Part shown: positions 2,751 through 61,180 of the stretch, one piece after another
Layout of the letters: each line of letters opens with the position of its first letter
Position numbering within the stretch: position 1 is the first letter of the stretch
Assembly: GCF_046119375.1 (NCBI RefSeq)
Contig: NW_027362771.1
Coordinates: 544,794,001 to 544,858,000 of the forward strand
Direction of reading: 5' to 3'
Length of the DNA: 64,000 nt
DNA from: Phyllobates terribilis
Taxonomy: Eukaryota
Notes under the pieces: model-generated
What the model saw: only the letters and a program-made list of their open reading frames with translations
Told to the model about the DNA's origin: nothing
The model's database searches: none
Made by a program: the position numbers and the translations under genes

Positions 2751-3000
2751 GTAATCATCAAGACCTGAGTTTCATGGGTGAGATCCAATTAGGAGTTGAC
2801 TAGTTCACATTTATAAGAAGCCAACCAATAAATTGGGCTTTTTTTTTTTTTATTAAGGCTAACACTAGAAATAGACTCAAAGATATACCAACTTCTTTGT
2901 AGACGTAGTCATCTTTAAAAAAAAAAAAGGTTAACCGTCGTTTTCATTTTTATTTATGCAAAAATCAATAGTACGCATAAAAATAAGAAACTTTTTAATA

Positions 3001-3341
3001 CATCTTATCAGAGAAATCTGCTTCTATCTCCTCTTGGATTGATTGTTCTCTCTCAATTAATGGATAAAATTTGTATTCAGTGAAGACAGATTTTATTTCG
3101 TTGCTGAGATAAAAGATGACAGTTGGTGCTTATAAAATTCAATGGAGAGGGGAGTAGCTAGAGGCCGACACAGACTTTCTACTGCAAGTTTCATAGAGTT
3201 TTCTGAGCACCAACTGTCATCTCCCTTCTCACTAATGGGAAAATCTGTTTTCACTGAATATCTATTTTAGAGATTTTATCCATTATTTGAGAATAAAAGA
3301 TCAGTCCAAGAGGAGAAAGAAGCAGATTTGTCTGATAAGAT
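3001..3341. mobile_element. Fold-back MITE
   Basis: Long imperfect inverted arms: tcttatcagagaaatctgcttc ... gaagcagatttgtctgataaga. Confidence 0.7.
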
Positions 3342-3587
3342 ATAGTACAAAGTTTCTTATTTTCATGTGTACTATTGCTTTATGAACAAAAAAAATAATT
3401 AAAATGACGTTCCACGCTCCCATCGGCGCACGTCTGTGACACGCCAATGAGTTGTCATGACAGCCAAGGGTCTGCTGAAGACCCCCGTACCTGTCATTAT
3501 TATCCTCCTGTTCTTACCGGCTCGTGGCTGGCGTTCATAGCAGATCATGATTTTAGCTATACATAGCAGTGCATCAGTGAGCAGGAG

Positions 3588-5320
3588 ACCAGGACTCACA
3601 GGCTTTCTCGATATCTGAGCAGGACTCACAGGCTTTCTCTATGTGTGGGAGGGGGTAGTAGGATTCACAGGCTTTCTCTAAGTCTGAGCAGAAGAACAGG
3701 ACTCACAGGCTTTCTCTATGTGTGGGCGGAGGTAGTAGGACTCACAGGCTTTCTCTATGTGTGGGCGGGGGTAATAGGACTCACAGGCTTTCTCTATGTG
3801 TGGGCCGGGGTAGTAGGACTCACAGGCTTTCTCAATGTATGGGCAGGAGAACAGGACTCACAGGCTTTCTCTATGTGTGGGTAGGGGTAGTAGGACTCAC
3901 AGGCTTTCTCAATGTCTGGGCAGGAGAGCAGGACTCACAGGCTTTCTCAAATGTGTGGGCAGGGGTAGTAGGACCACAGATTGTTCTGTGTGTGGGCGGG
4001 GGTAGTAGGACCACAGATTGTTCTATGTGTGGGCAGGGGTAGTAGGACCACAGATTGCTCTGTGTGGGCGGGGGGTAGTAGGACCACAGATTGTTCTATG
4101 TGTGGGCAGGGGTAGTAGGACCAAAGATTGTTCTGTGTGGGCGGGGGTAGTAGGACCACAGATTGTTCTATGTGTGGGCGGGGGTAGTAGGACCACAGAT
4201 TGTTCTATGTGTGGGCGGGGGTAGTAGGGCCACAGATTGTTCTATGTGTGGGCGGGGGTAGTAGGACCACAGATTGTTCTGTGTGGGCGGGGGTAGTAGG
4301 ACCACAGATTGTTCTATGTGTGGGCGGGGGTAGTAGGATCACAGATTGTTCAGTGTGGGCGGGGGTAGTAGGACCACAGATTGTTCTATGTGTGGGCGGG
4401 GGTAGTAGGACCACAGATTGTTCTGTGTGGGCGGGGGTAGTAGGACCACAGATTGTTCTGTGTGTGGGCGGGGGTAGTAGGACCACAGATTGTTCTATGT
4501 GTGGGCGGGGGTAGTAGGACCACAGATTGTTCTATGTGTGGGCGGGGGTAGTAGGACCACAGATTGTTCTATGTGTGGGCGGGGGTAGTAGGACCACAGA
4601 TTGTTCTGTGTGGGCGGGGGTAGTAGGACCACAGATTGTTCTGTGTGGGCGGGGGTAGTAGGACCACAGATTGTTCTATGTGTGGGCGGGGGTAGTAGGA
4701 CCACAGATTGTTCTATGTGTGGGCGGGGGTAGTAGGACCACAGATTGTTCTGTGTGGGCGGGGGTAGTAGGACCACAGATTGTTCTGTGTGTGGGCGGGG
4801 GTAGTAGGACCACAGATTGTTCTATGTGTGGGCGGGGGTAGTAGGACCACAGATTGTTCTATGTGTGGGCGGGGGTAGTAGGACCACAGATTGTTCTATG
4901 TGTGGGCGGGGGTAGTAGGACCACAGATTGTTCTGTGTGGGCGGGGGTAGTAGGACCACAGATTGTTCTGTGTGTGGGCGGGGGTAGTAGGACCACAGAT
5001 TGTTCTATGTGTGGGCGGGGGTAGTAGGACCACAGATTGTTCTATGTGTGGGCGGGGGTAGTAGGACCACAGATTGTTCTATGTGTGGGCGGGGGTAGTA
5101 GGACCACAGATTGTTCTGTGTGGGCGGGGGGTAGTAGGACCACAGATTGTTCTATGTGTGGGCAGGGGTAGTAGGACCACAGATTGTTCTATGTGTGGGC
5201 AGGGGTAGTAGGACCACAGATTGTTCTATGTGTGGGCGGGGGTAGTAGGACCACAGATTGTTCTATGTGTGGGCGGGGGTAGTAGGACCACAGATTGTTC
5301 TATGTGTGGGTAGGGGTAGT
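3588..5320. repeat. G-rich minisatellite, 35-38 bp units, in HTRA4 intron 2
   Basis: Units ggactcacaggctttctctatgtgtgggcgggggtagta to ~3960, then ggaccacagattgttctatgtgtgggcgggggtagta. Confidence 0.95.
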
Positions 5321-5577
5321 AGCCCATACTCTGTGGTGTGAGTGGTAAATCGGGACTTACCGACTTTGTAATCAAGGAATTAATCAATCTAATGAAGAAA
5401 TTCTTGTTAATAAGAAGCCAGGACCTGTGCGCCAGGTGCTGGGAGTCAGGGAAATAGGAGGAATGCCAAAAAGGCACCTTGCCTTGGCCAGGCCATGGAC
5501 AGTTCAGCCACAAGACTGGATAATAGGTGAATTGTGCTCCTATAACACGTAATATAACCGGTGTTTTCTTGCTGTAG

Positions 5578-10826: not shown

Positions 10827-11257
10827 TAAATCTAGAAATGGGAATAAGAATGTGATACCCTATGGAGGGAGAGCGGGAGATCGCTGGTTACACTCACCTG
10901 GTGGAGATGTCACAGGCACAACTCCTACGTAGGCATGAAGAAAACCAGCAGCTGCCCCATGGCTGGTGGATAAATCCTCCAAGAGATATTGGATCCGGTC
11001 GGATGAACACGAAGGAGGGCTGCGCTGCTGGAGTAAATCAATTCTTTTGAAATGATTAGAATAAGATTTTTTATTCACGACGTGTTTCAATCTTTATAAA
11101 GTGAAAAAAAACAAGACCAAATTTAGATGTTTTTTCACGCCGCTACGGTGTTGAAACGCTTTGTGAATGAAAAAAAACCTTATTCTCATCATCATTTCTG
11201 AAGAATTGATTTACTCCAGCAGCGCAGCCCACCTACGTGTTCATCCAACTGGATCCA
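10827..11257. mobile_element. Penelope-like fold-back insertion with degenerate hammerhead remnants
   Basis: Inverted arms 10990-11257 with GAAAC-like motifs pointing outward from the centre. The left boundary is approximate. Confidence 0.5.
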
Positions 11258-11419: not shown

Positions 11420-12410
11420 TTTAATATTGTGATTAAAAAATGACTAAACTTTTAGTTTGCTTTTTTTATAATTTTGTCTCCACCTTGACATGCTTAACAT
11501 GTCACTCTCCGCAAGGAGAAATGTTACCTCTTGGATCCCAGTCAGATGCCTCTCACCCAGCCGAACCAGATATCACACTTTGCACTGACGAGGGGCAGTA
11601 CCCCGAAACACAGAGTCTGCAAATTGAGATTCTGGTTTGGCTTTTATCCTAAGTCACGTGACAAGGCTTGTTAGAGAGTCGATATTGACTTTTAGGATTG
11701 CTACTTCCTGTAGGTGGTGCTAGAGGTCTAGTCCTCTTCCTGTCTGAAGAGGCAATTTGCATGTCTCCAGCATAGAAAGTTATGAAATAAATAACTTTAT
11801 TATGAGATTTGTCTTCATTCTTGTAAAAATTACATTTAAGTGACTTTTAAACTCTCTATTTTCCTGTCTGATATCAGAAAGTACTCATTTGGAGAACAGA
11901 TGATGGCAGTGATGGGTCAGTTCAGCTCCTGTGTCTCACTAACTCTGGGGATGAGAGGCTGCAGTACATTGTTCTGATAAGGGCACAGCCAGACAGATGT
12001 ATAAATTGGACCTAGATCAAATCACAAGGCTCGGACTGGCCAGCAGCTCTCCTGACCTGAGCGTGACAGCTTCCTATATTTCTATGCAGCTTTCACGCTC
12101 CAGGCAGGAGAGCTGCGGCCAGTCCGAGCACTGAGGTCCGATTTATACAGCCGTCTGAATGCGCCCTAAGCAGAACACTCAGAGGAGGACACAGGGTCTG
12201 AGTTGACCATTTCATTGCCATCATCTGTACTCCATATGAAGTGAGTAGACTGGAGAAAAGCAGGTGGTTTGGAAGTCACTTATATGCATTTTTTTTTCCG
12301 GAATGAAGACAAATTCCCTAATAAAGTGATTTACAAAGTTTCATAACTTTCCATGCTGTACAAAATTATAAGAAAAATGAAAGTTTAATTACTTTTCAAT
12401 TTAATATGAT
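11420..12410. mobile_element. Fold-back MITE hosting the HHR element in its left arm
   Basis: Arms cagcatagaaagttatgaa / ttcataactttccatgctg, with inner pairing across ~11880-12240. Arm homology resumes left of 11475. Confidence 0.65.
11579..11623 (+). ncRNA. Type I hammerhead ribozyme motif
   Basis: TTTGCA-CTGACGA-GGGG(CAGTA)CCCC-GAAAC(ACAGA)GTC/TGCAAA: stem I, core, stem II, short stem III and a GUC cleavage triplet. Confidence 0.8.
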
Positions 12411-14264: not shown

Positions 14265-16060
14265 CTACTAGAGATGAGCGAACCTTTTGATGTTCGGGTT
14301 CGTCAATTAAACCCGAACATCAAAAAAATGTCCGTGTTTGGGCACCCAATCCCGAACCCGAACGGGGCCCCCGAACATCCCTGGTTTCCCATGCTGTCAT
14401 TGGCGTTACAGCGCGGGAAAAAAGGGCTGTGATTGGCAATAACATCTCTACCGCCGGTCACAGCGCTGCGGGATCACAATGTCAGGAGTCAGTGTGATCC
14501 CGTAGCTGTGACAGTTACCCGTAGTAAAAAGCTTACCGCAAGTCATAGGCGCCGGCTGATGAGACTACTACCCCATCATCACCCGGCGCCTTTTGTCACT
14601 GTAAACAAGCAGTGCAAGCACCGTTGATGTGACGAGTAATCTCTCAGCAGCCAGTGCTTGCGCAGTGAAAGAAAAAAAAAAAAAAAAGTTAAAATAAATA
14701 AATAATTATTTCAATAAAAATAATAAACACATTATACTCAACTACATCTAATCGTCGATGTTCTCGTCCCCTGTAAAAAAAAATAAAAAACACCATATAC
14801 TCACCTTACACCTAATCCCCAATGCCCATGTCTCCTGAAATAAAGATAAAATAATAAACCACCATAATCCTCACCTGTCCACCATAGTATATATAATATT
14901 GAGTGTCCCACAATGATTTCACTGATAGCACAGCCACATCTGGAGATGTGACCTTGCGATCGCTCCCGCAGTGTATCGCAATGAGCTGCCAGCACTGAGG
15001 TCACTGGAGTTCAAACAGCTGAAGATCACGACACCGGTGCTGCGTGAGAATTTTCCCACGCAACACTGATGCAGTAAGTGAGGGCACTTGAGCTCACAGC
15101 TGATCTTCAGCTGTTTGAACTCAAGTGACTTCACTCCTGCAGCACAGCACTATACACTGACAGGAGTGGTTGCACTCCTGTCAGTGTATACAGTGCTGTC
15201 TTCTACAACAGTCACATCAGTGATTGCTGATGTGGCTGCTATAGAAGTGAGCCGGTTCGTCATGGGACACTGTGGATTAAGTCATGATGGCGGACAGGTG
15301 AGGGATATGGTTGTTTTTTATTTTTGGTTTCTTACAGGAGACGAGGGCTTCGGGGATAGGGCGTTAGGTGAGTATACAGTGTTTTTTATCTTTAAATAAA
15401 TTATTAAAACCATGGAATTTTACTTAAAATAAAATACTTTATTCTGGCCGTGTCTTTATTTCAAAACCTTGACTATAGTAAGGTTTTACTAGTAATAAGG
15501 ACATCTTATAGATGCCCTCCATTACTAACCTGTGCTTCATGTCAGCCGCCAATACAAGGCTGACATGAATCCCAACCCTATTATCCCCCTAGCCATGGTT
15601 ATATGGCAGTGGGAAGAGTGAGGCTAAGCGCCAGATTTGGCGCATCTTATGAATGTGCCATTTCTGGGGCTGCTGAGGGCTGATATTACTAGCCTTGGGG
15701 GGGAGGCATGATCCATGGCCCCTTCCCTGGCTATTATCAGCTCACATTTGTCTGTTTAGCCTTTGATGGTTAGATTTTATAGGGGTATCCTACGTCAATT
15801 TTTTTCTGGGGTCCCCCTGTAATCTAGCCAGTTAAGGCTAAGCAAACAGCTGTGAGCTGTTATTAATAGCCAGGGAACATCTTTGGCTAACGGCATCTTC
15901 CCTGGTTAGTAATATCAGCCCTCAGCGGTTGGCTTTCCCTCTGCTGGTTATGAAAATGACACGGGAGCCCACGCATTTTTTTTATTTAATTCTTCATTTT
16001 ATTTCATTTCTAAGAAATCCCATGCCCATTGTGCTTGTTTTTGAAGCTGCGTAAACTCAC
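14265..16060. mobile_element. Non-autonomous DNA-transposon-like repeat nested in L2
   Basis: Starts tagagatgagcgaacc and has internal inverted arms (~14780-14900 / ~15280-15395, tactcacc/ggtgagta). Confidence 0.5.
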
Positions 16061-16597: not shown

Positions 16598-17159
16598 TGT
16601 AACATCTGTACCAGTTTCTGCTTCGGGTGCTTGGCGGCGCCACACCATTGTTGCAGGTCATGACTGATCGCATCAATCCTATTTTATTCCTAGGACTTGT
16701 GGCTCTGGCCAGTCCGGAAGCTACGGGTTTAATCTTGTTGATTTGGTTTCTTTCTGCTGTCAGCATTGGGTGGGGCTGTTCTATATAAACCCCTGAAAAC
16801 CAGCTCCCACTGCCAGTCAATGGTTTAGCTATCCTGGTTCAGACCTTCTGTGTTTTGTCCTGATTATTCCCGTTCTTTGACCCTGACTTGATATTTCACT
16901 ACCCGCTTGTTTTAGGATTTTGGTCCTGACGTGACTTCTTGGCTTTGAACCCGCTTGGCGACCATTCCTACCTCTGGTTTGCACTTTCGGATGACAGCCC
17001 TTCCATAGTAGCTATCCACTGGATCGTGTTGTAAAACAAGATCCCTGTATAGGGGATAAAGGGTATCAGGGTACTTCAGGAATCTGCTAGATGGAGTGGC
17101 TTGTGCCAACTCTGTCTGAGGTAGCCTTTTTGAGCCTGTGGCCTCAGGCAGACGTGACA
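16598..17159 (+). mobile_element. Solo LTR (562 bp)
   Basis: TGTAACA...GTGACA termini; perfect 5-bp TSD CCTGT (16593-16597 / 17160-17164); internal TATA-like ctatataaa. The L2 reading resumes across it. Confidence 0.85.
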
Positions 17160-17925
17160 CCTGTGCTTCAAACCACACATCCAAGCCCTTACCACCGCCT
17201 GCCACTTTCAATCCAAAAATATTTCCAGAATTCGACCCTTCTGCAACTCTGGATCTACTAAAATGTTAGCAATGTCCTTATCATCTCCCACCTTGACTAC
17301 TGCAATGTTCTCCTCTATGGCCTCCAACTAACTCTTTCTCACCTCTCCAGTCCCTCCTTAACTCTGCTGTTTAATTAATCCACCTCTTCCCTTGCTACTC
17401 TTCCACCTTTCCCCTCTTTATTGACTTCCAATTCCCCAACAAACCCAACTTAAAATACTAAAAATTACCTACAAGGATGTCTATAACCTCTCTCTTCCAT
17501 ATATCTCGAAAGAAATCTCCCGATATCTGCCCACATGTAATCTCCGGTCCTTACAAGACCTCCTTCTTTTTTCCCTATCATCCCCCATTCTCTGAAATTC
17601 CGTGCTCCAACACGTCCGATTTTCTCCCATATTTGAAACCTTCATACTTAACTTGAAAACTCATCTCTATAAGAAAGCTTACAGTCTGCAATGACCCCAC
17701 TGCCACCAATCCACCACCGGAGCTGCTGCAAACCCCCCCAACCTACTGTCTCTCTCCCCATTACCCAGTAGATTGTAAGCCCATGAGAGCAGCGTGCTTT
17801 CCCACTCTGTAGCAGTATGTCACTGTTAATGTGTACATTGTAATTTATACATTTATCTTGTATGTAAACCTTCTTCATATGTACAGCACCATGGAATTAA
17901 TGGTGCATAAAAATAAAAAATAGAA

Positions 17926-19770
17926 GGCAGAAACATTAACAGTGAGCCACAGACTGTACTTTTACGTATTAGAGAATTTTGTCTACCTAAGGGTCTAATG
18001 GTGTACTTCTTCACTGGCATAATATACTGGTACATAGAAATACATGTTTATACAACAGTACGTTATGGGTCAAAAAAGATCAAAAGTAAAAGAGATTTTT
18101 TTATCCATAAAGTTAATTAAAAATAATGGTGTAAAAACAATTATAATAATCTCATTTTTTTATACACTTTTTTTTAAAATAAACATTACAAACCAGTAAA
18201 TAACATGTACATGCTTGATATTGTGGAAGTGTAACAACCCATATAATAAAGTTAACATATTATTTATGACGATTGGTAAAAGGAAATAAATAAAAATGGT
18301 GCAAATGTCTTTTTTTTTTCCATTTAACCCATAATAAAAGGTAATATAAAGATAACGCTTAACTAAGTGTATGGTAAAATGGCCCCAAAATAAAACCTAC
18401 CTCTTGTCTCTCTCAAAAAAAACAGACATCATAGAGCAAAGTTTATGTAAAAATGAAAAAGTTATGGTTGTTATGAAGTTCAAAACAAAAACATTCTTCT
18501 GATCATCTAAACAAAAATGTCCATCAGTAAAGAGATTGCAGTACAAATTTTGTGGCATACTAGGTCATCTCTCCTTTTAATGGTATATTCACACATGGTG
18601 GGTTTTTGGCATACTTTGGTAGAAATTACAGGATGCATGTACTGTATATATGTGTAATGCGCACCTGTGTATATTATATGTATATGTTTTACTATATATA
18701 TACAGTATGTGTGTGTGTGTGTGTATCTTATATATGCTAGTATGCATATATGTACAATGTATATTTGTGTTTAATGTGTTAATGTATGTACAATGTGTGA
18801 ACATGTGCATATTTTATATATCTGTTAATATGCATGTGTACACATGGGTGACGCCTAATCCTTCTCTCCCCCAACATCATCTCTTAGGGGAGAGTCAGGA
18901 GGCCGCCATACACTAGACTGTCAACCTCGATTTAGACAACTTTAGTTTACTGTGATCACTAGATGCTTTCAAATATTTAATTTGTTTTCTTGAATCAAGT
19001 CCTACCCAGGATTCAAAGCCCTCTAGCTTGGGAGGCAGAAACCTTAACAGTGAGCCACAGAATGCCATATTACATTTCAGAGAATTTTCTCTACCTAAAG
19101 ATCTAAACTGTATATTTATTCTTCAATGGCATAATGTACTGGTACATAGAAATATATCTTTACACACCAGTACATTATAGGTAAAAAAAAAAAAGATCAA
19201 AAGTAAAAGAGATTTTTTTAGCTATAAAGTTAATAAAAAATAATGGTGCAAAAACAATTATAGTAATCTCATTTTTTATACACTTTTTAAAAAAAAAAAC
19301 AAATGTTATAAACCAGTAAATATAAAAGACTGGAATAAAATGGGTTAAAACTGCGCTACCATCTGAAGGATGATGAGGAGACAGGAATTCAAGATTACTG
19401 TTTATTAGTCAACGCGTTTTGAAGTATCAAACTTCTTCATCAGGACAAACCACAGTGATCGCTGATCTGTCCTGATGAAGAATGTTGATACTTTGAAACG
19501 CGTTGACTAATAAACTGGAATCTTGGATTCCTGTCTCCTCATCATCCTTCTGACGGCAGCGCAGTTTTAACCCATTTTATTCCAGTCTTTTATGGTTCCA
19601 TAATCCTGGGTCTGCAGCAGCCTAAGCCTTCTAGTGGTTGTGAGCACACAACCCGACCAGTTGAGCCCTATTGCCCACATTTTTTCCAATTTATTATCCG
19701 GATGAGACCCTATTTGTCCTTCCAGCTTTTTACTCTATAAACCAGAAAATAACATGGATATATTTGATAT
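17926..19770. repeat. Local dispersed duplication (~300 bp)
   Basis: 17926-18220 aligns with 19034-19320 plus 19750-19770. Confidence 0.8.
19321..19735. mobile_element. Penelope-like fold-back insertion with two opposed hammerhead motifs
   Basis: ~125-bp inverted arms across 19322-19593. HHR motifs at 19469-19507 (+) and 19408-19446 (-). TSD tataaaccagtaaa / tataaaccagaaaa. Confidence 0.75.
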
Positions 19771-20099
19771 TGCTCTAGTGTTAGACCTTATATGATCACA
19801 TATTAATCACTTATCATAAAAATGGTACAGAAATGTTAGATGTAGTGGTGATGGCATTGTAGAGTAGTGAGGAGGGCTGGATCATCCATGGTGAAATCTC
19901 TGCTTACTGCTTATAATGATGTAGTTAGAAGTAGTAAACGGATTACTATTTTCCTTACACATCACTTTACTTTATCCATTAAATCTGTAATGTAAAAATA
20001 TAGTCCTGGGGGGTAAGACCGCTGACGGCCTCCATGCAATTCGGTGATATATATCATTAGGAGATCCAATAGCTTAATTGTATATTTTTCTGTAGTGAC

Positions 20100-21606
20100 T
20101 GCGCTTATCCTGTCAAACATTTCCCATGATAGATTGCCGCTCGACCACATGTCTGTTCTTGTATTTTTCACCCCAGATGTTTCCAGATAGTAATATCAAG
20201 GAAACTTGTTCAACTAGCTTTTCCACATCTATCACTACATTACGACACAAAGGCGGGAATAAATAGTAATACTGAGATGTTGGATTTCCACAATTGTAAA
20301 ATGTAAAAAAAGCAGATACTCTACTAAATTCTCTGGAGCTATCGGTCCATCTATAGATAACAAATGGAGGCAGCACTCCAAAAAATGAAGTGCAAGAGTA
20401 CTGTCCCAAGTGGCAAAGTTTCGTTTTATAGTGTGAACCTTGATAAAGATTCACACTATGAACCGAAACGTCATTACATGGGCTTAATAAAGTCCCGCCA
20501 GTAATCTTGCACTTTATTTGTTGGAGTGTTGCCGCCATTTGTTTCCTATATTCAAAATTGAGGCTTGGCACTCAGATGTCCTCTATAAAGCTAGTGCTGC
20601 TTTAATTTTTTTCTGTATCTATCTATCTATCTATCGTAACATTTGCATCTTTACTAGTAGTGGACAACCTAAGGGTAGAACATCAATAAGTTTGTATTAA
20701 CGACAAAGTTCCACTAATGGAATCCTATGTGGTAATTCTGGTCATAAACTCAATATTGGCATGACACACACTCTTTTTCCACAGGGACTTAATCCCCCAA
20801 AAAATAAATTTGTATGAGCATATTATTCAACCATAAAAATAAATGTTATTATGTCAAAAAATTAAAAACAATAAAATACAGTGCTTCACAAAAAAGAGCG
20901 GGTAGCAAATTGATTTACATGCATAGACAATTGATGAGAAAATATTTCATTAAAAAACCTTTATGTTATGAAATATGTAAAGAAGACCTATAGAATAAGG
21001 ACAAACCCAATTTGTGGCTAAAACACATGTTATGTGCATATGGGGAAAACGGTGTTGAAACATTGAGTACCACCTGTGTAATACAGGAATAGGTAAGTAT
21101 GGACTGACATGTTTAAACAATAATGAATAGCTGCCAATCAACAACAATTCTACACACAGTTTTCCAATGACTATGTGAATACATTAAATAAGAATGAATA
21201 GGAGAGTGAATATCAAAAGGGTTAATACCTTGATAAAGTGCTCTGTGCAACCGCCCACCCGTCGCCCCGACGTGCGTTTCGTCTAGCCTTCTTCAGGGAG
21301 CTATAGTTGGTATGCCGCATGTGTGATATATATATAGTGGAAATGTGAATCTCGCATCGTTAGCCGGTGTACGCTCTGCTACTTCCGGTCAGGACCCAAC
21401 CTTCAGTGGCACATGCGTAGGATGAAAACTTTCTTTAACCATGGAACTTCCGTTCGCGGCAGTGAAGCTTTTTTGTGAAGCACTGTATTTTATTGTTTTA
21501 CATTTTTTGACATAATAAAATTTATTTTTATGGTTGATTAATATACTAATTTCTTTTTTTGGGGATTAAGTCCCTGTGGAAAAAGAGTGTGTGTCATATC
21601 AATAAG
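20100..21606. mobile_element. Penelope-like remnant cluster: RT fragment, fold-backs and HHR motifs
   Basis: Minus-strand SFLDITIWK (FLD motif) at ~20170-20210; fold-back 20345-20550; inverted repeats 20752-20898 / 21465-21606; HHR-like motif on - at 21265-21300. Confidence 0.55.
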
Positions 21607-21614
21607 TTTGTGTA

Positions 21615-23230
21615 GTAACTAAGGATAGTCCATGGCTATGGTGGATTAGCTATGGATAGGCCATAGAGAGGTTGTGGGCTACCTAGGGATAGACCATAGA
21701 TAAGGAGGTGGACTACCTAGGAATAAGCCAGAGATAATGTGGTGGACTACCTTGGGATAGACCATAGATAAGGTTGGTAAAGTAAGTAGGGATATAGCAT
21801 AAGGTGGTGGAATACCTAAGGATAAGCCATGGTGGTGGACTACCTAGGGAAAAACCATAGAGATAGACAGTAAAGTAATGGACTACCTAGGGGGATAGAC
21901 AAAAAAATAAGGTGGTGGACTACCTTGGAACAGACCATACATTAAGTGGTGGACTACCTAAAAATACGCAATAGATAAGGTGGTGGAGTGGATTACCTAG
22001 GGATAAACCATTGTGAGGTGTTGGACTACCTAAGGAAAGATCATAGAGAGGTGGTGGACTACCTAGAGATTGACCATAGATAAGGTGGTGGGCTACCTAG
22101 AAACAAACCATCAATGAGGCACTGTACTGCCAGAATCCAGACATACACATTAGATGGCTGTCAAACAAACGATGCTTTGGTTGATGGTTCAGCCAACATC
22201 CATCTCAGCCGACTCTATCATACACAAGAGCGCTCACTTTAGTGAACTCTCCTATGTTCCCTATGAAAGACGTCAGCTGCATGTTGGCCAGCGGCTTATC
22301 TTCGAAAAAACAATGTGCTCATCAGTCCTTGATCGGATATGCCAAATTGACATTTCCCCCAATGATCAGTCAGCCAGCACCCCCATACTGTTAATCAAAC
22401 CCGTTGACATCTGTGAGTCCAGCCGACATTAGTCTAATGGGTATGGGGGCTTTAAGGATATACCATAAATAAGGTGGTAGACAACCTAGGGATAGACGAT
22501 ATATATAACATGGTGTAGTATCCAGGGACAGACCATAGATAAGGTGATGTACCACCTAGGGATAAACCAAAGATAGTACAGACTACCTTGAAATAGACCA
22601 TCGATAAGGTGGTGGAATACCTAGAGATAGACCATAGATAAGTTGGTGGACTAACTTGGAATATACTATAGATAAGTTGATGGAATACAGAGGAATACGC
22701 TACTGTATATAAAAGGAATTGGACGACCTTGGAATAGTTGCTAGACAAGGTGTTGGACTACCTAGGAATAGACTATAAATAAGGTGGTGGATTACATAAG
22801 GATAAACCATAGATAAAGTGGTGGAATAGCTAGGAATAGACTATAGATAAGGTGCTGGACTACCTAGGAAAAGGCTATAGATAAGGTAGTGGGCTATCTA
22901 GGAGTAGGCTATAGAAAGGTGTTAAACTACCTAGGAATAGGCCAAAAATGAGGGTAGTGTGCTTCGTAGGGATAGACCAAAGATAAGGTGATAGCTTACC
23001 TAGCGATAGTGGATTGATAAAGGGTGTGTAGAAACTAGGGATAGTCCATAAAATAAGGTGGTGGACTACCTATGAATAGACCATAGATAAGGTTGTGAAA
23101 TATCTAAGAATAAACCATAGAGAGATGGTGGACTATCTAGGGAAAGACCATAGAGAAGTGGGTGGATTACTTAGAGATAGACCATAGATAAGGTGGTTGA
23201 CTCGCTAGGGATAGACCATAGATAATGAGG
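21615..23230. repeat. Degenerate 34-bp minisatellite, interrupted by a MITE at ~22110-22450
   Basis: Consensus ggtggtggactacctagggatagaccatagataa. Confidence 0.85.
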
Positions 23231-23432
23231 TGGATTACCACCAATCATCCATTTACTTTATGAAGGTTATCTCTAGTGTGCCTTAATGAGTGTTCGTGTA
23301 GAACGTACAGATTAATGTGGATGTTATGCTGATGACATGACCCACATAACCTTTTTTTGCTGATATCTCTTGATCAGTGTAATCCTCTCTTACAGATCAC
23401 TGATTGTGTCCTGGATTTCTCTTTTCTTATAG

Positions 23433-26725: not shown

Positions 26726-26781
<56 letters not shown>

Positions 26782-26783
<2 letters not shown>

Positions 26784-28408
26784 ATACTGACCAAAAGTTC
26801 ACACTTTCTCATTTAAAGATTTTTCTGTATTTTCATGACTATGAAAATTGTACATTCACACTGAAGGCATCAAAACTATGAATTAACACATGTGGAATTA
26901 TATACTTAACAAAAAAGTGTGAAACAACTGAAAATATGTCTTATATTCTAGGTTCTTCAAAGTAGCCACCTTTTGCTTTGATGACTGCTTTGCACACTCT
27001 TGGCATTCTCTTGATGAGCTTCAAGAGGTAGTCACCGGAAATGGTTTTCACTTCACAGGTGTGCCCTGTCAGGTTTAATAAGTGGGATTTCTTGCCTTAT
27101 AAATGGGGTTGGGACCATCAGTTGTGTTGTGCAGAAGTCTGGTGGATACACAGCTGATAGTCCTACTGAATAGACTGTTAGAATTTGTATTATGGCAAGA
27201 AAAAAGCAGCTAAGTAAAGAAAAACGAGTGGCCATCATTACTTTAAGAAATGAAGGTCAGTCAGTCCGAAAAATTGGGCAAACTTTGAAAGTGTCCCCAA
27301 GTGCAGTTGCAAAAACCATCAAGCGCTACAAAGAAACTGGCTCACATGAGGACCGCCCGAGGAAAGGAAGACCAAGAGTCACCTCTGCTTCTGAGGATAA
27401 GTTTATCCGAGTCACTAGCCTCAGAAATCGCAGGTTAACAGCAGCTCAGATTAGAGACCAGGTCAGTGCCACACAGAGTTCTAGCAGCAGACACATCTCT
27501 ACAACAACTGTTAAGAGGAGACTTTGTGCAGCAGGCCTTCATGGTAAAATAGCTGCTAGGAAACCACTGCTAAGGACAGGCAACAAGCAGAAGAGACTTG
27601 TTTGGGCTAAAGAACACAAGGAATGGACATTAGACCAGTGGAAATCTTTGCTTTGGTCTGATGAGTCCAAATTTGAGTTCTTTGGTTCCAATCACCATGT
27701 CTTTGTGTGACGCAGAAAAGGTGAACGGATGGACTCTACATGCCTGGTTCCCACCGTGAAGCATGGAGGAGGAGATGTGATGGTGTGGGGGTGCTTTGCT
27801 GGTGACACTGTTGGGGATTTATTCAAAATTGAAGGCATACTGAACCAGCATGGCTACCACAGCATCTCGCAGCGGCATGCTATTCCATCCGGTTTGCGTT
27901 TTAGTTGGACCATCATTTATTTTTCAACAGGACAATGACCCCAAACACACCTCCAGGCTGTGTAAGGGCTATTTGACCAAGAGTGAGAGTGATGGGGTTC
28001 TACGCCAGATGACCTGGCCTCCACAGTCACCAGACCTGAACCCAATCGAGATGGTTTGGGGTGAGCTGGACCGCAGAGTGAAGGCAAAAGGGCCAACAAG
28101 TGCTAAGCATCTTTGGGAACTCCTTCAAGATTGTTGGAAGACCATTTCTGGTGACTACCTCTTGAAGCTCATCAAGAGAATGCCAAGAGTGTGCAAAGCA
28201 GTCATCAAAGCAAAAGGTGGCTACTTTGAAGAACCTAGGATATAAGATATATTTTCAGTTGTTTCACACTTTTTTGTTAAGTATATAATTCCACATGTGT
28301 TAATTCATTGTTTTGATGCCTTCAGTGTGAATGTACAATTTTCATAGTCATGAAAATACAGAAAAATCTTTAAATGAGAAGGTGTGTCCAAACTTTTGGT
28401 CTGTACTG
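26782..28408 (+). mobile_element. Tc1-superfamily transposon, DD38E type, copy 1 (defective)
   Basis: ~270-bp TIRs; TA at the right flank. Transposase 27192-28245 has a TGA at 27708 and a +1 frameshift at ~27900. Confidence 0.92.
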
Positions 28409-28853
28409 TATGTATATGTATATATATATATATATATATACATATACAATGTGGTAAAGTGAATTGCTCAGCTCTCACATAGGCAGACGCAGGAAACACT
28501 TCTTTGGTTAACATCCTGCTGATTTATTAATACATTGCATAAACCACGGCAGGATTCCACAAAATAAACACGGCCTCTACGAGATAATGGAAAAACAAAA
28601 AAGATAAAGTATAGTACAGTTCATAGGCAAGCGAGGTTTTTCCCGCTCCAGGTAGCACAATAGGGTTGTGCCCCAAAGAAAAAAACAGTGGCTGAGCATT
28701 TAACTTCTCCAGCCACACCGTTGAGGTGGAGATATGGTGAGTAGGTGTCCCGCCCATCTCAGACCTACTCACAAAGAACCAGACCCAAAATGGCTGATTA
28801 ACATCTTCAGCACCTAACATGCTGAAGAAACTTCTAGGTTCAGTTCACTGAAG

Positions 28854-30388
28854 CTAGTAGCCGCAGTGAAACATAGCTTCCCTCACATACATCACCAAAC
28901 TGTTGGCAGCCTTGAAATTGTCACATATTCCCCCCATCTGCCCAAAGCCCGGGGTTTTGGCACCTTCAATCACCAGACAGGGAATTCTAGAGAGAGCATC
29001 AGCATTACTATGTAACTTCCCGGGCCTATGCTCCACGTGAAAACTAAAGTCTTGGAGACCTAAAAACCACCTAGTCACCCGGGCATTCTTACCCTTCTTT
29101 TCCCTTAACCATCTCAAAGGGGCATGGTCCGACACTAGTTTAAATTTTCGGCCTAGTAGGTAATATCTCAGCGTATCTACGGCCCATTTTATGCCTAAGC
29201 ATTCTTTCTCTATTATCGCATAGTTTTTCTCACAGGAAGAGAGTTTCCGGCTCAAATACAGGATGGGATGTTCCTCCCCATTTATCTCTTGGGACAGCAC
29301 GGCTCCTAGAACAACTTCTGAAGTGTCTGGACCACAAATTCTTTATTAAAGTCTGGTGCGACCAGGACCGGCTGCTTACACAGTGCCAGCTTCAGCTGTT
29401 GGAACGCCGTCTCCATCTCATCCGTTCATTTCGCAATTGTTGTATTGGTGCCTTTGAGAAGATCAGTAAGTGGCACGGCCATCATGGCAAAATTTGGGAT
29501 AAACCACTGGTAATATCCCACAATTACAAGAAATGATCTCACCTGCTTCTTGGAGAGCGGTTGAGGCCAGTTCTGGATTGCCTCAACCTTATTTACTTGT
29601 GGATTAATTTCGCCTCTCCGATGACATAGCCTAAGTAATTGGCCTCCTCCTTCCCAATGGCACATTTTGTCAGATTTATAGTAAATCCAGCCTTCCTCAG
29701 AGCGTGCAGAATCGCCTTTACCTATGGTAGATAACTAGACAAGTCTTAGCTAAAGACCACAATGTCATCAAGGTAGGCTGCGGCATATTTCTTATGTGGG
29801 GCTAAGATCCGATCCATGGCCCTCTGAAAGGTGGCTGGGGCCCCCAGCAGTCTGAAAGGCATTTGAGTGTATTGGAAACACTCATCAGGTGTTGAGAAAG
29901 CCGTCTTCTCCTTGGCCCTCTGGGAAATGGGGATCTGCCAGTAGCCCTTCGTAAGGTCGAGGGTGATAATATACCTCGCAGGTCCAAGCCTCTCAATGAG
30001 TTCATCGACACGGGGCATCAGGTATGCATCACACAGGGATACCTCATTCAGCTTGCGGTAGTCATTACAAAATTTCCACTCCCTGTTGGGCTTTGGCACG
30101 AGAACGATGGGACTCAACCATCCACTTTTACTCCTCTATCACACCGAGGTCTAACATTCTCTTCACCTCGGTTGAGATCACCTCACGGTGTGCTTCTGGA
30201 ATCCAATAGGGCTCCAGGTTCACACTTATATGTGGCTCTGTCAACACATCATGCTCTACCACCTGCGTATGCCCCTTCAACTCCGAGAACAAGTCACGAT
30301 TCTGCTGCAGCAGTTCTCGACACTGTTGCTTCTGTGCCGGCAATAGATTCTCTGCTATCGTGACATCCTCCACCTTGGCTTCGGCCAC
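28854..30388 (-). pseudogene. Gypsy RT and RNase H (frameshifted)
   Basis: SPIVLVPK..CNDYRKLN..LDLTKGYWQ..YLDDIV; HPILYLSRKL..EKECLGIKWA..SDHAPL. Confidence 0.92.
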
Positions 30389-30439
30389 TTAGGCTAGGAG
30401 CTCCCACTGGTTCCCGATCCCGTCACGGACTGAGCAAGT

Positions 30440-31769
30440 TCACATGATATATCTGGTGCGTTTTCTTCGGCCAGGCTGGTGGACTTTATAATTAACTTTG
30501 CTGAGTTTCTCCACCACCTCATATGGGCCTTGCCACTTGGCCAGAAACTTTCTTTCGACTTTGGGGATTAGCACCAGAACACGGTCCCCAGGCTGGAACT
30601 GCCTCAGCCTCGCTGATCGGATATATACACTTGACTGGACCTCCTTTGCCTGGAGGAGATGCACCTTCACGATAGGCATCACTTTTGCGATTCTATCCTG
30701 CATGTGGGCGACATGCTCTATGATGCTCCGGTGGAGCGTAACTTCAGCTTCCCAGGTTTCCTTGGCAATATCCAGGAGCTCTCGCAGATGTTGGCCATAC
30801 AGTAGCTCAAACGGGGAGAAACCAGTAGAGGCTTGCGGAACCTCCCTTACAGAGAAGAGCAGGAATGGCAGCAGGTAGTCCCAGTCTCGACCATCCTTCT
30901 CAATGACTTGAGGTTCGCAGTTGGGCAATCTGGAGGACCTTACACATCTCCTTCATTACCTTGCTCATGAATGGGGTTCTTTGGTCGGTTAATATCTCCT
31001 TCGGCAGTCCGGTCCTGGCAAATATATGGACAAGTTCCTGGGCTATGCTCCTACTCGATGAGTTCCTTAGTGGTACCGCTTCTGGGTACTGGGTCGCATA
31101 GTCCATGACCACCAGGATATATTGGTGGCCCTGTGCCAATTTAATTAAGGGACCCACTAGGTCTATGGCAATCCTCTCAAAGGGAATCTCTATCACAGGT
31201 AGTGGGATTAGAGAACTACGGAAGTGGGAAGAGGCAGCAGTGATCTGGCAGGTGGGGCACGACTTACAATAGTTTAGGATCTCCCAGTGACACCCTGGCC
31301 AATAGAACCTCCTCATTATCCTCTCCCAAGTTTTCTCGACCCCCAAGTGTCCCCCCAGAACATGTGAATGGGCCATATCTAATACCCTCCATTGGTATGG
31401 CCCTGGAACTAACAGCTGTTCCACTGTCTCACCACCCCTTAGTTTGCTTACCCGATACAATAACTCCCCCTGAAGAGCAAAGTGTGGGAACCTAGTGTAG
31501 GCCCCCGGCTCTTGAGAAACCCCATTACAGACAGTAGCCTGGTTAAATGCCCCCTTTAAGGTCAGGTCCCGAACTTGAGTAGTCCCAAAATTCTCTCCGG
31601 ACACTTTGAACTCAGGGAGGTCGGCCTCCTTGGTCACCGACTCGTCCTCATTGCCGGCAAGGACACACAGGGGGAACTCATCCACTTGTGATTTCGACGC
31701 TGGTTCTTCTCTAGTGACCTGGCTTTTGTCCACGTGACTCAATATAGTACCTTTTCCCACAAGTTCCAA
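30440..31769 (-). pseudogene. Gypsy integrase (H2C2 zinc finger, core, GPY/F)
   Basis: HSHVLGGHLG..CKSCPTCQ; IAIDLVGPL; ILTDQRTPF; KWQGPYEV. Confidence 0.92.
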
Positions 31770-33093
31770 AACAAGGAAAAATCAGGGCCCAATATGACGG
31801 GATGTATCAGGTCCTTGACCACCCCGACCTCATGGGACTGGACACCACAGTCTGTTCCCACGGTCACTCTGGCCACAGGGTAGTCCTTGGCGTCCCCATG
31901 TATACAGCTAATGCCCACGGTTTTGGCGGGTACCAACTGGTGGGGAATGGTAGCACTGATTAGGGTCACCACTCCGAATCCAACAGCCAAGCACCCTCAG
32001 CCCATTCATGGGCACGGCAGACGCTTACGGCCTCTCTCTGGGTTGACAGTCCACACTACAGGCCGGATAGGCGTAATAGGAACAACGCCGGCCTAGGCTG
32101 CAGTCCATTGGTCCAAGGGACATATGACACCGGGCGGCTAAGTGTCCAGGATTGTGACAACTCCAACAGACCACATGCTTAACAACAGTCTTTGTGGGAC
32201 CCTCAGTGGAATTGGGATGCCCCCCAGTTGTGGCTCTAGACCCCCTACGTGGTGAACCTGCCCTCCTTTGGGTATTCCAGTACGGGTAAGTGACTATGTC
32301 TAGTTACCTCAGGGATTTCTCAACCACCTGGTACCTCTCTACTAGGCCGACGAGGTCGTCCGCGTTCTGAGGGTCACCCTGGGCAACCCAAGTCTGTACC
32401 GACCTGGGAAGGGAGTGTATGAATCTGTCAATCACCACCCGCTTGACCATCTGGGCAGGAGTGGAAGACTCTGGATGCAACCACTTCTAGACTAGCTGCA
32501 GTAAGTCAAACATCTGCGAACGAGGGGGGTTTGTAGCCGGCATACACCCAGTGGTGGACTCGTGGGGCGCTCACTGCCATAGTCACTCCAGGTGTGCCAA
32601 GATTTCTGTCTTTAGTTTGGCATATTCCTTGGCATCCTGCAGTGCTAAGTCATAATATACCTTTTGGAGTTCACTCAACAAATATGGTGCCAGAACCTCT
32701 GCCCCCTCTCAAAGACTGTCAGAAAGGCTTCTACATCATGCCCTGGGGTCATCTTCTGCATGGCCCGTCTTACCGCCTTCCTGACACGTGAGTCATCAGC
32801 CGGACCTGGGGGTGGGGCGATCAGTCTGCCCTGGATGCCGCTGCGCTTTCTGCTGCAACTGGATCTGTTGTAGCAACAGCTTGGTTGTTTCCTGATGAGC
32901 TTGCTGCTGCTGCAGAAGCTGTTGCTGCTGTAGCTCCTGGTGCTGTTGTAGCTGCTGCAGGTGCTGTTGCTGCTGGCTCTGGACTAGATGCTTTATGAGC
33001 CCCTCCATGCTGCCAGACATCTCTTGCTGGCTGGCGGACTTCACCCAGGACATCCACCATTCTCTGTGGCTGGTACATGAATTCCTGGAATCT

Positions 33094-33112
33094 TGCCCGC
33101 ACTCTCGCACCA
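33094..33112 (-). promoter_or_regulatory. Primer-binding site, probably tRNA-Ala(AGC)
   Basis: Minus strand TGGTGCGAGAGTGCGGGCA is a near complement of the recalled vertebrate tRNA-Ala 3' end GCCCGCATTCTCCACCA. Confidence 0.6.
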
Positions 33113-33611
33113 ACTGTGGTAAAGCGACTTGCTTAGCTCTCACAGAGGCAGACACAGGAAACGCTTCTTCGGTTAACTTCTTGCTGGTTAACCACAAAAT
33201 AAACATGGCCTCTCCGAGATAATGGAAAAACAAAAAGATAAAGTATAGTACAGTTCATAGGCGAGCGGGGTTTCGCCCGCTCCTGGTAGCACAACAGGAT
33301 TTCACCACAAAGTCCTTCTGTGGAGCTCTCTCGCTTCCACACACGCACAGTCTGGAGACTTCCTTCTCCAAACCACACACCCCCAGAGAAAAAAAACAGT
33401 GGCTGAGCATTTAACTTCTCCAGCCATACCCTTGAGGTGGAGGTGTCCCGCTCATCTCAGACCTAGTCACAAAGAACCAGACCCAAAATGGTTGATTTAA
33501 CCTCTTCAGCACCTAACATGCTGAAGAAACTTCTAAGTTCAGTTCACGGAAGCTAGTAGCCGCAGTGAAACATATCTTCCCTCACAAAGATCACCAGTGA
33601 TTCTGTCACAA

Positions 33612-35135
<1,524 letters not shown>

Positions 35136-35528
35136 GAGAGAGAGAAAACATATAATATATAACACAGAATCCACCATTCACAATAGATGATCATCACAGA
35201 TCACCTCCTACCCCTCCATGCGCCATGTCCTCTGCACAAAGCACATCTACAAAACTCTCCCATAAAAGTCAATCATCATTTCTTGTCTGTTGCTGTGTAA
35301 GGTCTATGTGGCTGCTAAAAAGCATACTTATAAATTCTAACGCAAAATATCATTCCCTGAATCATGTACAAGGGACATCATAACGCAATCATGCCGTCGC
35401 AGAGCCTAGTAAGCACAAGAAGTGCCCAGGATGCAGAAGTGAAGACAGCCCTGGTCCAGCTGTAATGGAGCACCGGACTGGATGCTGGATCATGGCAGAA
35501 TTAATCTTTTTGCTCAACTCTAATTATA

Positions 35529-37514
35529 CAGTGGGTACGGAAAGTATTCAGACCCCTTTAAATTTTTCACTCTGTTTCATTGCAGCCATTTGATAAATTC
35601 TAAAAAGTACATTTTTTTTCTCATTAAAGTACACTCTGCACTCCATCTTGACTGAAAAAAAACAGAAATGTAGAAATTTTTGCAAATTTATTAAAAAAGA
35701 AAAACTGAAATATCACATGGTCATTAGTATTCAGACCCTTTTCTTAGTATTGAGTAGAAACACCCTTTTGAGCTAGTACAGCCATGAATCTTCTTGGGAA
35801 TGATGCAACACGTTTAAAACACACCTGGACTTGGGGATCCTCTCCCATTCTTCCTTGCAGATCCTCTCCAGTTCCTTCAGGTTGGATGGTGAACGTTGGT
35901 GGACAGCCATTTTCAGGTCTCTCCAGTGATGCTCAATTGGGTTTAGGTCAGGGCTCCGGCTGGCCAGTCAAGAATGGTCACAGAGTTGTTCTGAAGCCAC
36001 TCCTTTGTGATTTTAGCTGTGTGCTTAGGGTCATTGTATTTTTGGAAGGTGAACCTTCAGCCAAGTCTGAGGTCCAGAGCACTCTGGAAGAGGTTTTCAT
36101 CCAGGATATCTCTGTACTTGGCCGCATACATGTTTCCTTCAATTACAACCAGTCGTCCTGTCCCTGCAGCTGAAAAACACCCCCATAGCATGATGCTGCC
36201 ACCACGTTTCACTGTTGGGATTGTATTGGGCAGGTGATGAGCAGAGCCTGTTTTTTTTCCCCACACATACCGCTTAAAATTATCACCAAACAGTTCTATC
36301 TTCGTCTCATTAGACCAGAGAATTTTATTTCTCATAGTCTGGGAGTCCTTCATGTGTTTTTGAGGAAACTCTATGCAGGCTTTCATATGTGTTGCACTAA
36401 GGAGAGGTTTCTGTCGGGCCACTCTGCCACAAAGGCCCGACTGGTGGAAGGATGTAGTGATAGTTGACTTTGTGGAACTTTCTCCCATCTCCCTACTGCA
36501 TCTCTGGAGCTCAGCCACAGTGATCTTGGGGTTCTTCTTTACCTCTCTCACCAAGATTCTTCTCCCACGATTGCTCAGTTTGGCTGAACAGCCAGGTCTA
36601 GGAAGACTTCTGGTGGTTCCAAACTTCTTCCATTTAAGGATTATGGCAGCCACTGTGCTCTTAGGAACCTTGTGTAATGCAGAAATTCTTTTGTAACCTT
36701 GGCCAGATCTGTACCTTGCCACAATTCTGTCTCTGACCTCCTTGGACAGTTCCTTTGAGCTCATGATTCTTATTTGGTCTGCCATGCACTGTGAGCTGTG
36801 AGGTCTTATATAGACAGGTGTGTGCCTTTCCAAATCAAGTCCTATCAGTTTAATTAAACACACTCCAATGAAGGAGTAGAACCATTTCAAGGAGGTACAT
36901 GCAAAAAGTCAATAGTAGCCAGGGATCCGCACGGAAATGAGGGAGGCACACCCTCCTGCAATCACTTGGAACCAAAACAAATAAAGTCCAGCGGAGGAAC
37001 CCTTATTTTGGCATTTTTCTTAAAATCTTTTTATTCTTCAACAATCCTTAAAAGAACATCATTCCTTTTCGGACCAGGTATGTACAGACAGTGGGCACTT
37101 TATGGCAGTATAGAGGACACAGCTGTCTAGGAACAGATTACGCGTTTCAACTGTATAGGTCTAGGTCTCAGAAGAGGACCTATATGGTTGAAACGCGTAG
37201 TCTGTTCCTAGACAGCTGTGTCCTCTATACGATTTCCAAAGGATTTCAAAGAGGATCACAAGTAATTGGACAGCATGCGACTTAAATATGAGTGTCTGAG
37301 AAAAGGGTCTGAATACTTATAACCATGTGATATTTCAGTTTTTCTTTTTTAATAAATTTGCAAAAATTTCTACATTTCTGTTTTAATGCAGTCAAGATGG
37401 GGTGCAGAGTGTACTTTAATGAGAAAAAATGAACTTTTTAGAATTTACCAAATGGCTGCAATGAAACAAAGAGTGAAAAATTTAAAGGGGTCTGAATACT
37501 TTCCATACCCACTG
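35529..37514 (-). mobile_element. Tc1 transposon (third family), defective
   Basis: TA-CAGTGGGTACGGAAAGTATTCAGACCCC...TA, with ~215-bp TIRs. Transposase MSSKELSKEVRDRIV...WSNETKIELFG...GSIMLWGCFS. Carries an insertion at 36896-37242. Confidence 0.9.
36896..37242. mobile_element. Penelope-like fold-back insertion with degenerate HHR
   Basis: Palindrome 37108-37230 with GAAACGCGTA on both strands. TSD atttcaaggagg / atttcaaagagg. Confidence 0.7.
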
Positions 37515-37634
37515 TATATAAATTTAAAACGTTTTTTTTTGGTACCTTTTTTTTCTATGCTAGGCCCTTTGCACTGAGTAGATATATTCCTAAAATATCA
37601 TATCTAATATGTTTATTATCACTGTCTCCCGCAG

Positions 37635-39442: not shown

Positions 39443-41076
39443 CACAGCTCAAAAAAATAAAGGGAACACTCAAACAACACATCCTAGATTTGAATGAAAT
39501 ATTCTCATTGAATACTTTGTTCTGCACAAAGTTGAATGTGCTGACAACAAAATCACACAAAAATCATCAATGGAAATCACATTTATTAACCAATGCAGGC
39601 CTGGATTTGGAGTCGCCCCCAAAATTAAAGTGGAAAAACACACTACAGGCTGATCCAACTTTGATGTAATGTCCTTAAAACAAGTCAAAATGAGGCTCAG
39701 CATTGTGTGTGGCCTCCACGTGCCTGTATGACCTCCCTACAACGCCTGGGCATGCTCCTGGTGAGGCTCAGTATTGTGTGTGGCCTCCACGTGCCTGTAT
39801 GACCTCCCTACAACGCCTGGGCATGCTCCTGATGAGGTTGTGGATGGTCTCCTGTGGGATCTCCTTCCAGACCTGGACTAAAGCATCCGCCAACTCCTGG
39901 ACAGTCTGTGGTGCAACGTGACGTTGGTGGATGGAGCGAGACATGATGTCCCAGATGTGCTCAATCGGATTCAGGTCTGTGGATCGGGCGGGCCAGTCCA
40001 TAGTTTCAATGCCTTCATCTTGCAGGAACTGCTGACACACTCCAGCCACATGAGGTCCACCATTGTCCTGCATTAGGAGGAACCCAGGACCAACCGCACC
40101 AGCATATGGTCTCACAAGGGGTCTGAGGATCTCATCTCGGTACCTAATGGCAGTCAGGCTACCTCTGGCGAGTACATGGAGGGCTGTGCGGCCCTCCAAA
40201 GAAATGCCACCCCACAACATTACTGACACACTGCCAAACCGGTCATGCTGAAGGATGTTGCAGGCAGCAGATCGCTCTCCATGGCGTCTCCAGACTCTGT
40301 CACGTCTGTCACATGTGCTCAGTGTGAACCTGCTTTCATCTGTGAAGAGCACAGGGTGCCAGTGGCAACTTTGCCAATCCTGCTGTTCTGTGGCAAATGC
40401 CAAGCGTCCTGCACGGTGTTGGGCTGTGAGCACAACCCCCATCTGTGGACGTGGGGCCCTCATGGAGTCTGTTTCTAACCATTTGTGCAGACACATGCAC
40501 ATTTGTGGCCTGCTGGAGGTCATTTTACAGGGCTCTGGCAGTGCTCGACCTGTTCCTCCTTGCACAAAGGCGGAGGTAGCGGTCCTGCTGCTGGGTTGTT
40601 GCCCTCCTACGGCCCCCTCCACGTCTCCTGGTGTACTGGCCTGTCTCCTGGTAGCGCCTCCAGCATCTGGACACTACGCTGACAGACACAGCAAACCTTC
40701 TTGCCACAGCTCACATTGATGTGCCATCCTGGATGAGCTGCACTACCTGAGCAACTTCTGTGGGTTGTAGAGTCCGTCTCATGCTACCACGAGTGTGAAA
40801 GTACAGCCAACATTCAAAAGTGACCAAAACATGAGCCAGAAAACATTGGTACTGAGATGTGGTCTGTGGTCCCCATCTTCAGAACCACTCCTTTATTGAG
40901 TGTGTCTTGATACTTGCCAATAATTTCCATCTATTGTCTATTCCATTTGCACAACAGCATGTGAAATTGATTGTCAATCAGTGTTGCTTCCTAAGTGGAG
41001 AGTTTGATTTCACAGAAGTTTGATTTACTTGGAGTTATATTCTGTTGTTAAGTGTTCCCTTTTTTTTTGAGCAGTG
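39443..41076 (-). mobile_element. Tc1 DD34E transposon with short TIRs (defective)
   Basis: TA-CACWGCTCAAAAAAA..GGGAACAC TIRs. ORF 40782-39768 is broken by a stop and a frameshift. Motifs FTDESRF, QDN-34-E. Confidence 0.9.
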
Positions 41077-41099
41077 TACATATATATTATGTACACATA

Positions 41100-61177: not shown

Positions 61178-61180
<3 letters not shown>
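60873..61180. mobile_element. T2-type palindromic MITE
   Basis: Same family as 52330-52592. Confidence 0.75.

Follow-up and report, generated by a model that had tools for sequence, protein, structure and literature searches.

A fold-back insertion with two damaged hammerhead motifs in a protease gene intron, most probably the truncated end of a Penelope-like element

Insertions of Penelope-like elements (PLEs) often carry an inverted, 5'-truncated copy adjoining the 5' end and a tail of 30-40 bp on one side, as described in three papers (PMC8557442; PMC3846280; PMC8969392). For the minimal hammerhead ribozymes of these elements, Cervera and de la Pena (2014, PMC4209133) give ~9,000 minimal motifs in Xenopus tropicalis and report dual minimal hammerheads that are located on opposite strands ~100-700 bp apart. 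The protein of a green anole PLE nicks and extends both strands of AT-rich DNA and initiates at two internal sites of the RNA, with a preference for RNA that is uncleaved (PMC11167929).

We report on a 413-nt fold-back (hairpin-shaped) insertion, 19323-19735, in a window of 64,000 nucleotides, i.e. the whole stretch of DNA that was analysed. The insertion is most probably a single, old and severely 5'-truncated copy of the pseudo-LTR and tail that form the non-coding end of an endonuclease-positive (EN+) PLE, situated in an intron of an HtrA-type protease gene. The insertion pattern is a known one, and the locus is an ordinary decayed example of it, one copy among many. Membership in the EN+ PLEs rests on structure, from which we also infer a link to an autonomous element encoding RT plus GIY-YIG. 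The features of the locus are as follows (TSD, target site duplication).

18187..18202, plus strand: empty target, in the paralogous copy 17925-18308 of host repeat 19033-19836
19307..19322, plus strand: left TSD copy, 16 nt with 3 G/C in 16; identical at 15/16 positions to the right copy and likewise at 15/16 to the empty target
19323..19454, minus strand: left arm, an inverted 5'-truncated copy with its 3' end outward and without the extension; reaches 11 nt upstream of the core
19408..19446, minus strand: minimal type I hammerhead, minus copy, core at 19443; stem II perfect (5 bp), stem III palindromic, A in place of G12 (19420)
19455..19467, no strand: head-to-head junction with a short spacer, unlike the upstream letters of related copies; bounds approximate
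19468..19593, plus strand: right arm, a direct 5'-truncated copy that begins ~4 nt upstream of the core
19469..19507, plus strand: minimal type I hammerhead, plus copy, core at 19472 with core letters intact; stem II broken at 19483, 19484 and 19494
19509-19514, plus strand: AATAAA immediately 3' to the hammerhead, mirrored on the minus strand at 19401-19406
19594..19735, plus strand: one-sided 142-nt extension ('tail'), which belongs to the element family (contigs are colinear across 19593)
19736..19751, plus strand: right TSD copy, from the maximal-repeat comparison with the left copy

With the complex insertions of EN+ PLEs (Craig et al. 2021, PMC8557442; Arkhipova et al. 2013, PMC3846280), the locus shares the head-to-head inverted end, the one-sided extension, the TSD round the whole unit and the AT-rich target. 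It differs in having no coding part and in an extension of 142 nt versus 30-40, and its 16-nt TSD compares with 8-10 nt in the rotifer PLE paper. The minimal hammerhead traits given by Cervera and de la Pena (PMC4209133) match the motif anatomy of each arm; relative to the metazoan PLE motifs covered there, both copies at this locus are damaged, they are 29 nt apart instead of 100-700 bp, and the nominal cut triplet is GUU. Compared with the anole element Poseidon PAc, as described by Frangieh et al. (2024, PMC11167929), the two internal 3' ends, the uncleaved hammerhead in the insert and the both-strand geometry are common to both, and the distance from the proximal end to the start of stem II is 114 nt here and 111-118 nt in PAc. 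In contrast to PAc, no open frame begins at stem II (there is an in-frame stop inside AATAAA) and the second end is positioned much further out. Finally, the non-LTR retrozymes, as described in two sources (PMC7229834; bioRxiv 10.64898/2026.07.22.740005), are likewise short and non-coding, carry a type I hammerhead and are related to pseudo-LTRs, whereas here the motifs are on opposite strands, not in a head-to-tail tandem, and the ribozyme is minimal, not canonical.

Insertion geometry, empty target and host gene

The maximal direct repeat between 19307-19322 and 19736-19751 is 16 nt long and thereby sets the bounds of the insertion at 19323-19735; a first-pass annotation of this DNA, made from the letters, had recognized the duplication and given its length as 14 bp. 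Inverted arms, which it had placed at 19322-19593 with a length of ~125 bp, are indeed present, and each is 131 nt long (19322-19452 and 19463-19593, 119/131 complementary, 10 nt between them). The differences between the arms comprise 7 transitions and 5 transversions. On folding, the 414-nt stretch reaches -223.5 kcal/mol (z -25.5), with 0 of 100 shuffles as good. A reading of arm plus tail as tandem units was rejected by sequence comparison.

An uninterrupted target, placed by the first-pass annotation at ~18185-18220, was found at 18187-18202, and the host segment 17925-18308 aligns to both insertion flanks (242/277 columns on the left and 80/99 on the right). The host repeat 19033-19836 is multi-copy, and other copies in the contigs are also without the insertion. 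Among the rows listed, a joint skipping 19276-19738 was present in two contigs each in X1 and X5 and in none in X6 and X9 (for the runs see below). Three samples from two studies contain near-identical contigs that cross the right junction (records 8, 15 and 23), and X1 may be the source sample; among the pieces listed for X1, X5, X6 and X9, no contig spans the whole stretch.

The window is repeat-rich animal DNA, by its likeness possibly from a non-mammalian vertebrate and probably an amphibian, in which HtrA-type serine protease exons were predicted on the plus strand at about 5590-37790 (Trypsin_2, E 2e-12); exon-like matches to what we take to be HtrA-type protease motifs are located at 10645, 11336, 23445, 26335 and 37651. 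The exons that flank the insertion, one ending at ~11368 and the next beginning at 23433, have normal splice signals, and the insertion is thus intronic. Both the intronic position and the family membership of the 142 nt at 19594-19735 had been overlooked in the first-pass annotation.

The window also contains several Tc1-like transposons, three of which (26744-28446, 41077-42981 and 47345-48984) represent one young family (92-97% identical), with one copy in the gene and two past the last exon seen; others are at about 33660-35135, 35525-37518 and 39768-40719. A broken LTR-retrotransposon remnant with RT and integrase domains covers about 28850-33250 on the minus strand, and minisatellite arrays were noted at 21600-23240 (unit 34 bp), 3578-5322 and 55464-57694. 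Hairpin-shaped repeats in which our scans found no hammerhead motif, probably MITEs, are present at 10990-11257, 15672-15926, 52340-52591, 60873-61197, 62405-62647, 2936-3409 and 11768-12358, and the three near 52-62 kb belong to one family.

Hammerhead motifs and the family seen in contigs

In each arm a 3-bp stem I is followed by CUGAUGA with one additional A, then by stem II (5 bp), GAAA and the palindrome AACGCGUU, the homoduplex of which has -9.3 kcal/mol. The bulged base, G10.1-C11.1, the palindromic stem III and the position near the element end, all of which characterize minimal type I hammerheads, are present. The arms, the motif scans and the opposite strands thus bear out the description of a fold-back insertion carrying two oppositely oriented hammerhead motifs, and the details given for each copy agree with our data: stem II of the plus motif, described as weakened, fails to fold (+3.8 kcal/mol when forced), the minus motif combines a perfect stem II (-2.8 kcal/mol) with AAAA for GAAA, and the AATAAA reported after the motif is found on both sides. 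The nominal cut site of the plus copy is after 19504 (GUU). A pattern written from both motifs had 2 matches in the 64 kb versus 0 in 100 shuffles, and a structural descriptor had 3 matches in the window versus a shuffle mean of 0.01, where the search patterns were derived from the motifs themselves and the descriptor was relaxed post hoc to allow AAAA. Rfam called neither motif, the sole Hammerhead_1 match in 17000-22000 being another motif (21263-21302), below threshold, and single-strand folding yields no hammerhead fold for either, as expected of minimal motifs.

With respect to function, positions 19420 and 19421 (mirror 19494) have changed in the two ways in which a single CpG can be deaminated, and G12A is a standard inactivating change that serves as inactivating control in PMC13481778. 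We found no intact core with stems able to fold in a transcript: the minus copy has G12A, stem II of the plus copy is broken, and in the predicted fold the opposite arm pairs with the whole core (probability at least 0.999, versus 0 for stem I). A transcript from either strand holds one sense motif only, and joint action of the two motifs is ruled out because they are on opposite strands and both damaged. With the motifs on opposite strands and buried in a 131-bp duplex in any transcript, the locus is, as predicted by folding, very probably catalytically dead and without self-cleavage. Moreover, since the hammerhead is whole in both arms, the insertion ends were not set by ribozyme cleavage.

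For the family, contigs of 4 of 20 listed runs were aligned to 19030-20650 at 80% likeness (1223, 919, 709 and 53 contigs); X1, X5 and X6 are DNA runs and X9 is a run guessed to be RNA, and contigs were used throughout. The contig tables give the best-supported rows, with 155 letter rows, 49 joints, 936 loose ends and 3209 pieces beyond them. Among the 53 contigs of X9, none had ≥99% likeness and 2 had 95-99%. The run search listed no RNA run that contains the sequence, a result without bearing on expression. Summed contig depth over 19415-19469, which is not a copy number, was 10587/10128/3302 versus ~9/14/5 on the unique flank (X1/X5/X6), and depth at the hammerhead so far above the unique flank points to a large dispersed set of related copies. 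The depth is uneven along the unit, with 10587 at the hammerhead, 101 in the outer left arm and 84 in the distal tail (X1).

At position 19420 the letter restoring G12 accounts in X1 for 7112 of 9441 depth units (116 contigs) and has a similar share in X5 and X6, and the letters restoring stem II have 778/1313 depth units at 19483 and 739/1313 at 19484. As the two damaged features, G12 on the minus strand and stem II on the plus strand, are both restored in the majority letters of the contigs, the core, judged by these letters, is intact in the family and the decay is that of the present copy. Absence of a conserved core from the family had been named in the first-pass annotation as the outcome that would count against it; related copies retain the core.

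Among the rows listed, seven records (5, 6, 7, 13, 14, 18 and 20) run colinearly across 19593, two X1 contigs end at 19736 and 19737, and four records (3, 4, 29 and 30) leave at 19575-19586. On the basis of these exits the family would appear to have two 3' ends separated by 142 nt. The match of related contigs to the left arm continues as far as 19454, where, among the rows listed, 33, 29 and 22 contigs leave into dissimilar sequence. Two X1 contigs (records 3 and 4, 87% and ~86% alike, 23-27 differences) cross the apex, which indicates that similar fold-backs are present elsewhere; other joints represent inversions with different breakpoints, e.g. 19452-19460 to 19602-19608, and joints such as 19450 back to 19400 represent related hammerheads in tandem elsewhere. 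The related copies, dispersed and multi-copy in the contigs, hence differ in extent, joint and arrangement, which is expected of truncated PLE ends.

Proposed priming of the two arms and competing explanations

In the mechanism that we favour, a PLE protein would have nicked both strands of the AT-rich target, 16 nt apart, and reverse transcription would have been primed twice on hammerhead-uncleaved RNA, from a distal start (19735) and a proximal start (19593). Both cDNAs would have stopped just 5' of the hammerhead and then been joined head to head, and later CpG-type and other mutations would have damaged both ribozyme copies so that no ribozyme activity is left. Target-primed insertion, as proposed in the first-pass annotation, is supported by the head-to-head geometry, the one-sided extension and the 16-nt TSD in an AT-rich target. 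The 413-nt copy is without an open frame, as expected of a truncated end; no RT plus GIY-YIG frame was found at the locus, and two motifs that we take to be those of PLEs had no match in the window.

The left arm has upstream family letters that are missing from the right arm, and the right arm has the tail that is missing from the left; neither is therefore a plain copy of the other. Specifically, the contig loose letters before 19468 resemble the left arm and differ from the right, in a consensus of low agreement (0.39-0.45), and based on these loose-end letters two priming events would explain the asymmetry better than one snap-back, in agreement with in vitro work on the anole PLE. A second arm made by self-priming of the cDNA (fold-back), or by a DNA template switch after insertion, would be a mechanistic variant of the PLE reading and is in our view unlikely. 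Self-priming was proposed for palindromic PLE junctions (PMC3846280), it is consistent with some letters that both arms share and many related contigs lack (19520), and in three other fold-backs the direct copy extends further 5' than the inverted one, which fits a snap-back; at the present locus, however, it is the shorter arm that extends further 5' and the longer one that carries the tail, an arrangement that a single snap-back would not produce. Also against this variant, the left arm directly adjoins the TSD, and host DNA is absent from it.

Regarding the origin of the element, the first-pass annotation had proposed a PLE-mobilised ribozyme cassette, and the PLE part of this proposal is supported by the motif anatomy, the head-to-head geometry, the one-sided extension and the TSD, whereas, given the variable extents, joints and arrangements of related copies, a dedicated non-autonomous cassette finds no support. 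We consider it improbable that the locus belongs to a dedicated non-autonomous family (a non-LTR retrozyme monomer or a fixed fold-back cassette) that is mobilised by a PLE in trans and has no coding parent of its own. That Xenopus retrozymes are homologous to pseudo-LTRs (bioRxiv 10.64898/2026.07.22.740005) would fit such a family, as would the two other contigs that cross the apex and the tandem-hammerhead joints, while the head-to-head copy without head-to-tail tandem, the very uneven depth along the unit and the different joints of other inversions do not. Every related piece seen is short and non-coding, which could be taken in its favour but is uninformative, since short-read contigs cannot reveal a distant frame. 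That the insertion is a MITE of a DNA transposon, or a fold-back element, with a hammerhead-like motif that arose by chance is largely refuted and, to us, barely conceivable, despite the many hairpin-shaped repeats in the window and a loose T-rich motif common to both termini. This terminal motif is weak and was picked post hoc, and scores as high were reached in 109 of 5000 shuffles and in 47 of 6396 tiles of the window; on the right, the inverted repeat stops 142 nt short of the element end; and the insertion ends show neither matching terminal inverted repeats nor a short, fixed TA/TTAA-type duplication, the ends that the first-pass annotation had regarded as pointing to a MITE. In addition, the motif has all four minimal-hammerhead traits, far above chance. 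We know of no cut-and-paste superfamily with a 16-nt TSD. Finally, exaptation as an intronic regulator of the host gene, through an active ribozyme or as a hairpin source of small RNA, is very improbable: the element is intronic, would be transcribed on the plus strand as a long duplex and is present in three samples, but its two arms decayed independently, catalytic and structural positions included, and the best Rfam microRNA match has 41.7 bits versus a gathering score of 118.

Junctions at the hammerhead's 5' edge

Three further hammerhead-bearing inverted insertions were found within the window, and these belong to families other than that of 19323-19735. The one at 20696-21597 is of PLE type, is located in a 34-bp degenerate tandem array and has an exact 14-nt duplication (20682-20695 and 21598-21611), inverted ends of ~143 nt and a one-sided extension of ~50-60 nt; its hammerhead-like motif (21263-21302, minus strand) scores 17.7 bits with Rfam Hammerhead_1, below threshold, and has a TATA-like box 36-40 nt upstream. 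The fold-back at 20352-20550, which is decayed and multi-copy in the contigs, has a hammerhead core of U3-A8 type at the apex, with AATAAA further downstream, and 37108-37230 is a fold-back (88%) with a decayed hammerhead at the apex and the same palindromic stem III as the 19323-19735 insertion. No TSD was found for 20352-20550 or 37108-37230.

An apparently intact and more canonical type I hammerhead, with a 6-bp stem I and a 4-bp stem II, is present at 11579-11623 on the plus strand; no clear TSD was found for this motif (11585). Being ~210 nt past a host-gene exon and on the plus strand, it would be in sense orientation in the pre-mRNA. It is possibly a retrozyme-like monomer and, by its letters, would be a better candidate for activity than the motifs of the 19323-19735 insertion.

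A motif scan elsewhere gave three loci (L001-L003) in metagenome_contigs and none in viral_contigs. These loci belong to a single additional family that shares the hammerhead core layout and has three compensatory, double-sided changes in five stem II pairs (alignment A1, where the last three rows are poorly aligned and were left out of the pair counts). They have a common 3' end ~165 nt past the core, in a T-rich run that resembles the 3'-end motif of the 19323-19735 insertion, and L003 has a fold-back at the hammerhead. The three loci have no coding frame >126 aa, and no RT plus GIY-YIG frame was found beside these matches.

In 4/4 fold-backs with a hammerhead in the arms, a tiny sample that was selected through the hammerhead motif, the apex is offset from core position 3 by -14.5, +3.5, 0 and +2 nt. 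A TATA-like box is positioned 36-40 nt upstream of the core in 3/4 copies (2/3 families) that retain upstream DNA. We tentatively suggest, as a possibility that we hold to be doubtful, that junctions near the hammerhead's 5' edge mark the start of the template RNA, and that priming of both target strands, with no template jump by either cDNA, gives rise to head-to-head fold-backs. Counter-examples are the 20696-21597 insertion, with its junction ~170 nt upstream of the motif, and L001 and L002, which extend at least 119 nt upstream; a counter-case is the Drosophila virilis promoter, which is TATA-less with a start further upstream (PMC2377424). We found no literature linking PLE inversion junctions to transcription start, most subscription papers being outside the search. 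The locus itself is of little weight, yet it is a clean example for teaching, complete with its internal empty site. If the clustering holds genome-wide, such mini-insertions would show where the PLE template RNA begins and at which sites reverse transcription starts, and this would have a bearing on how PLEs copy themselves and on what their hammerheads do.
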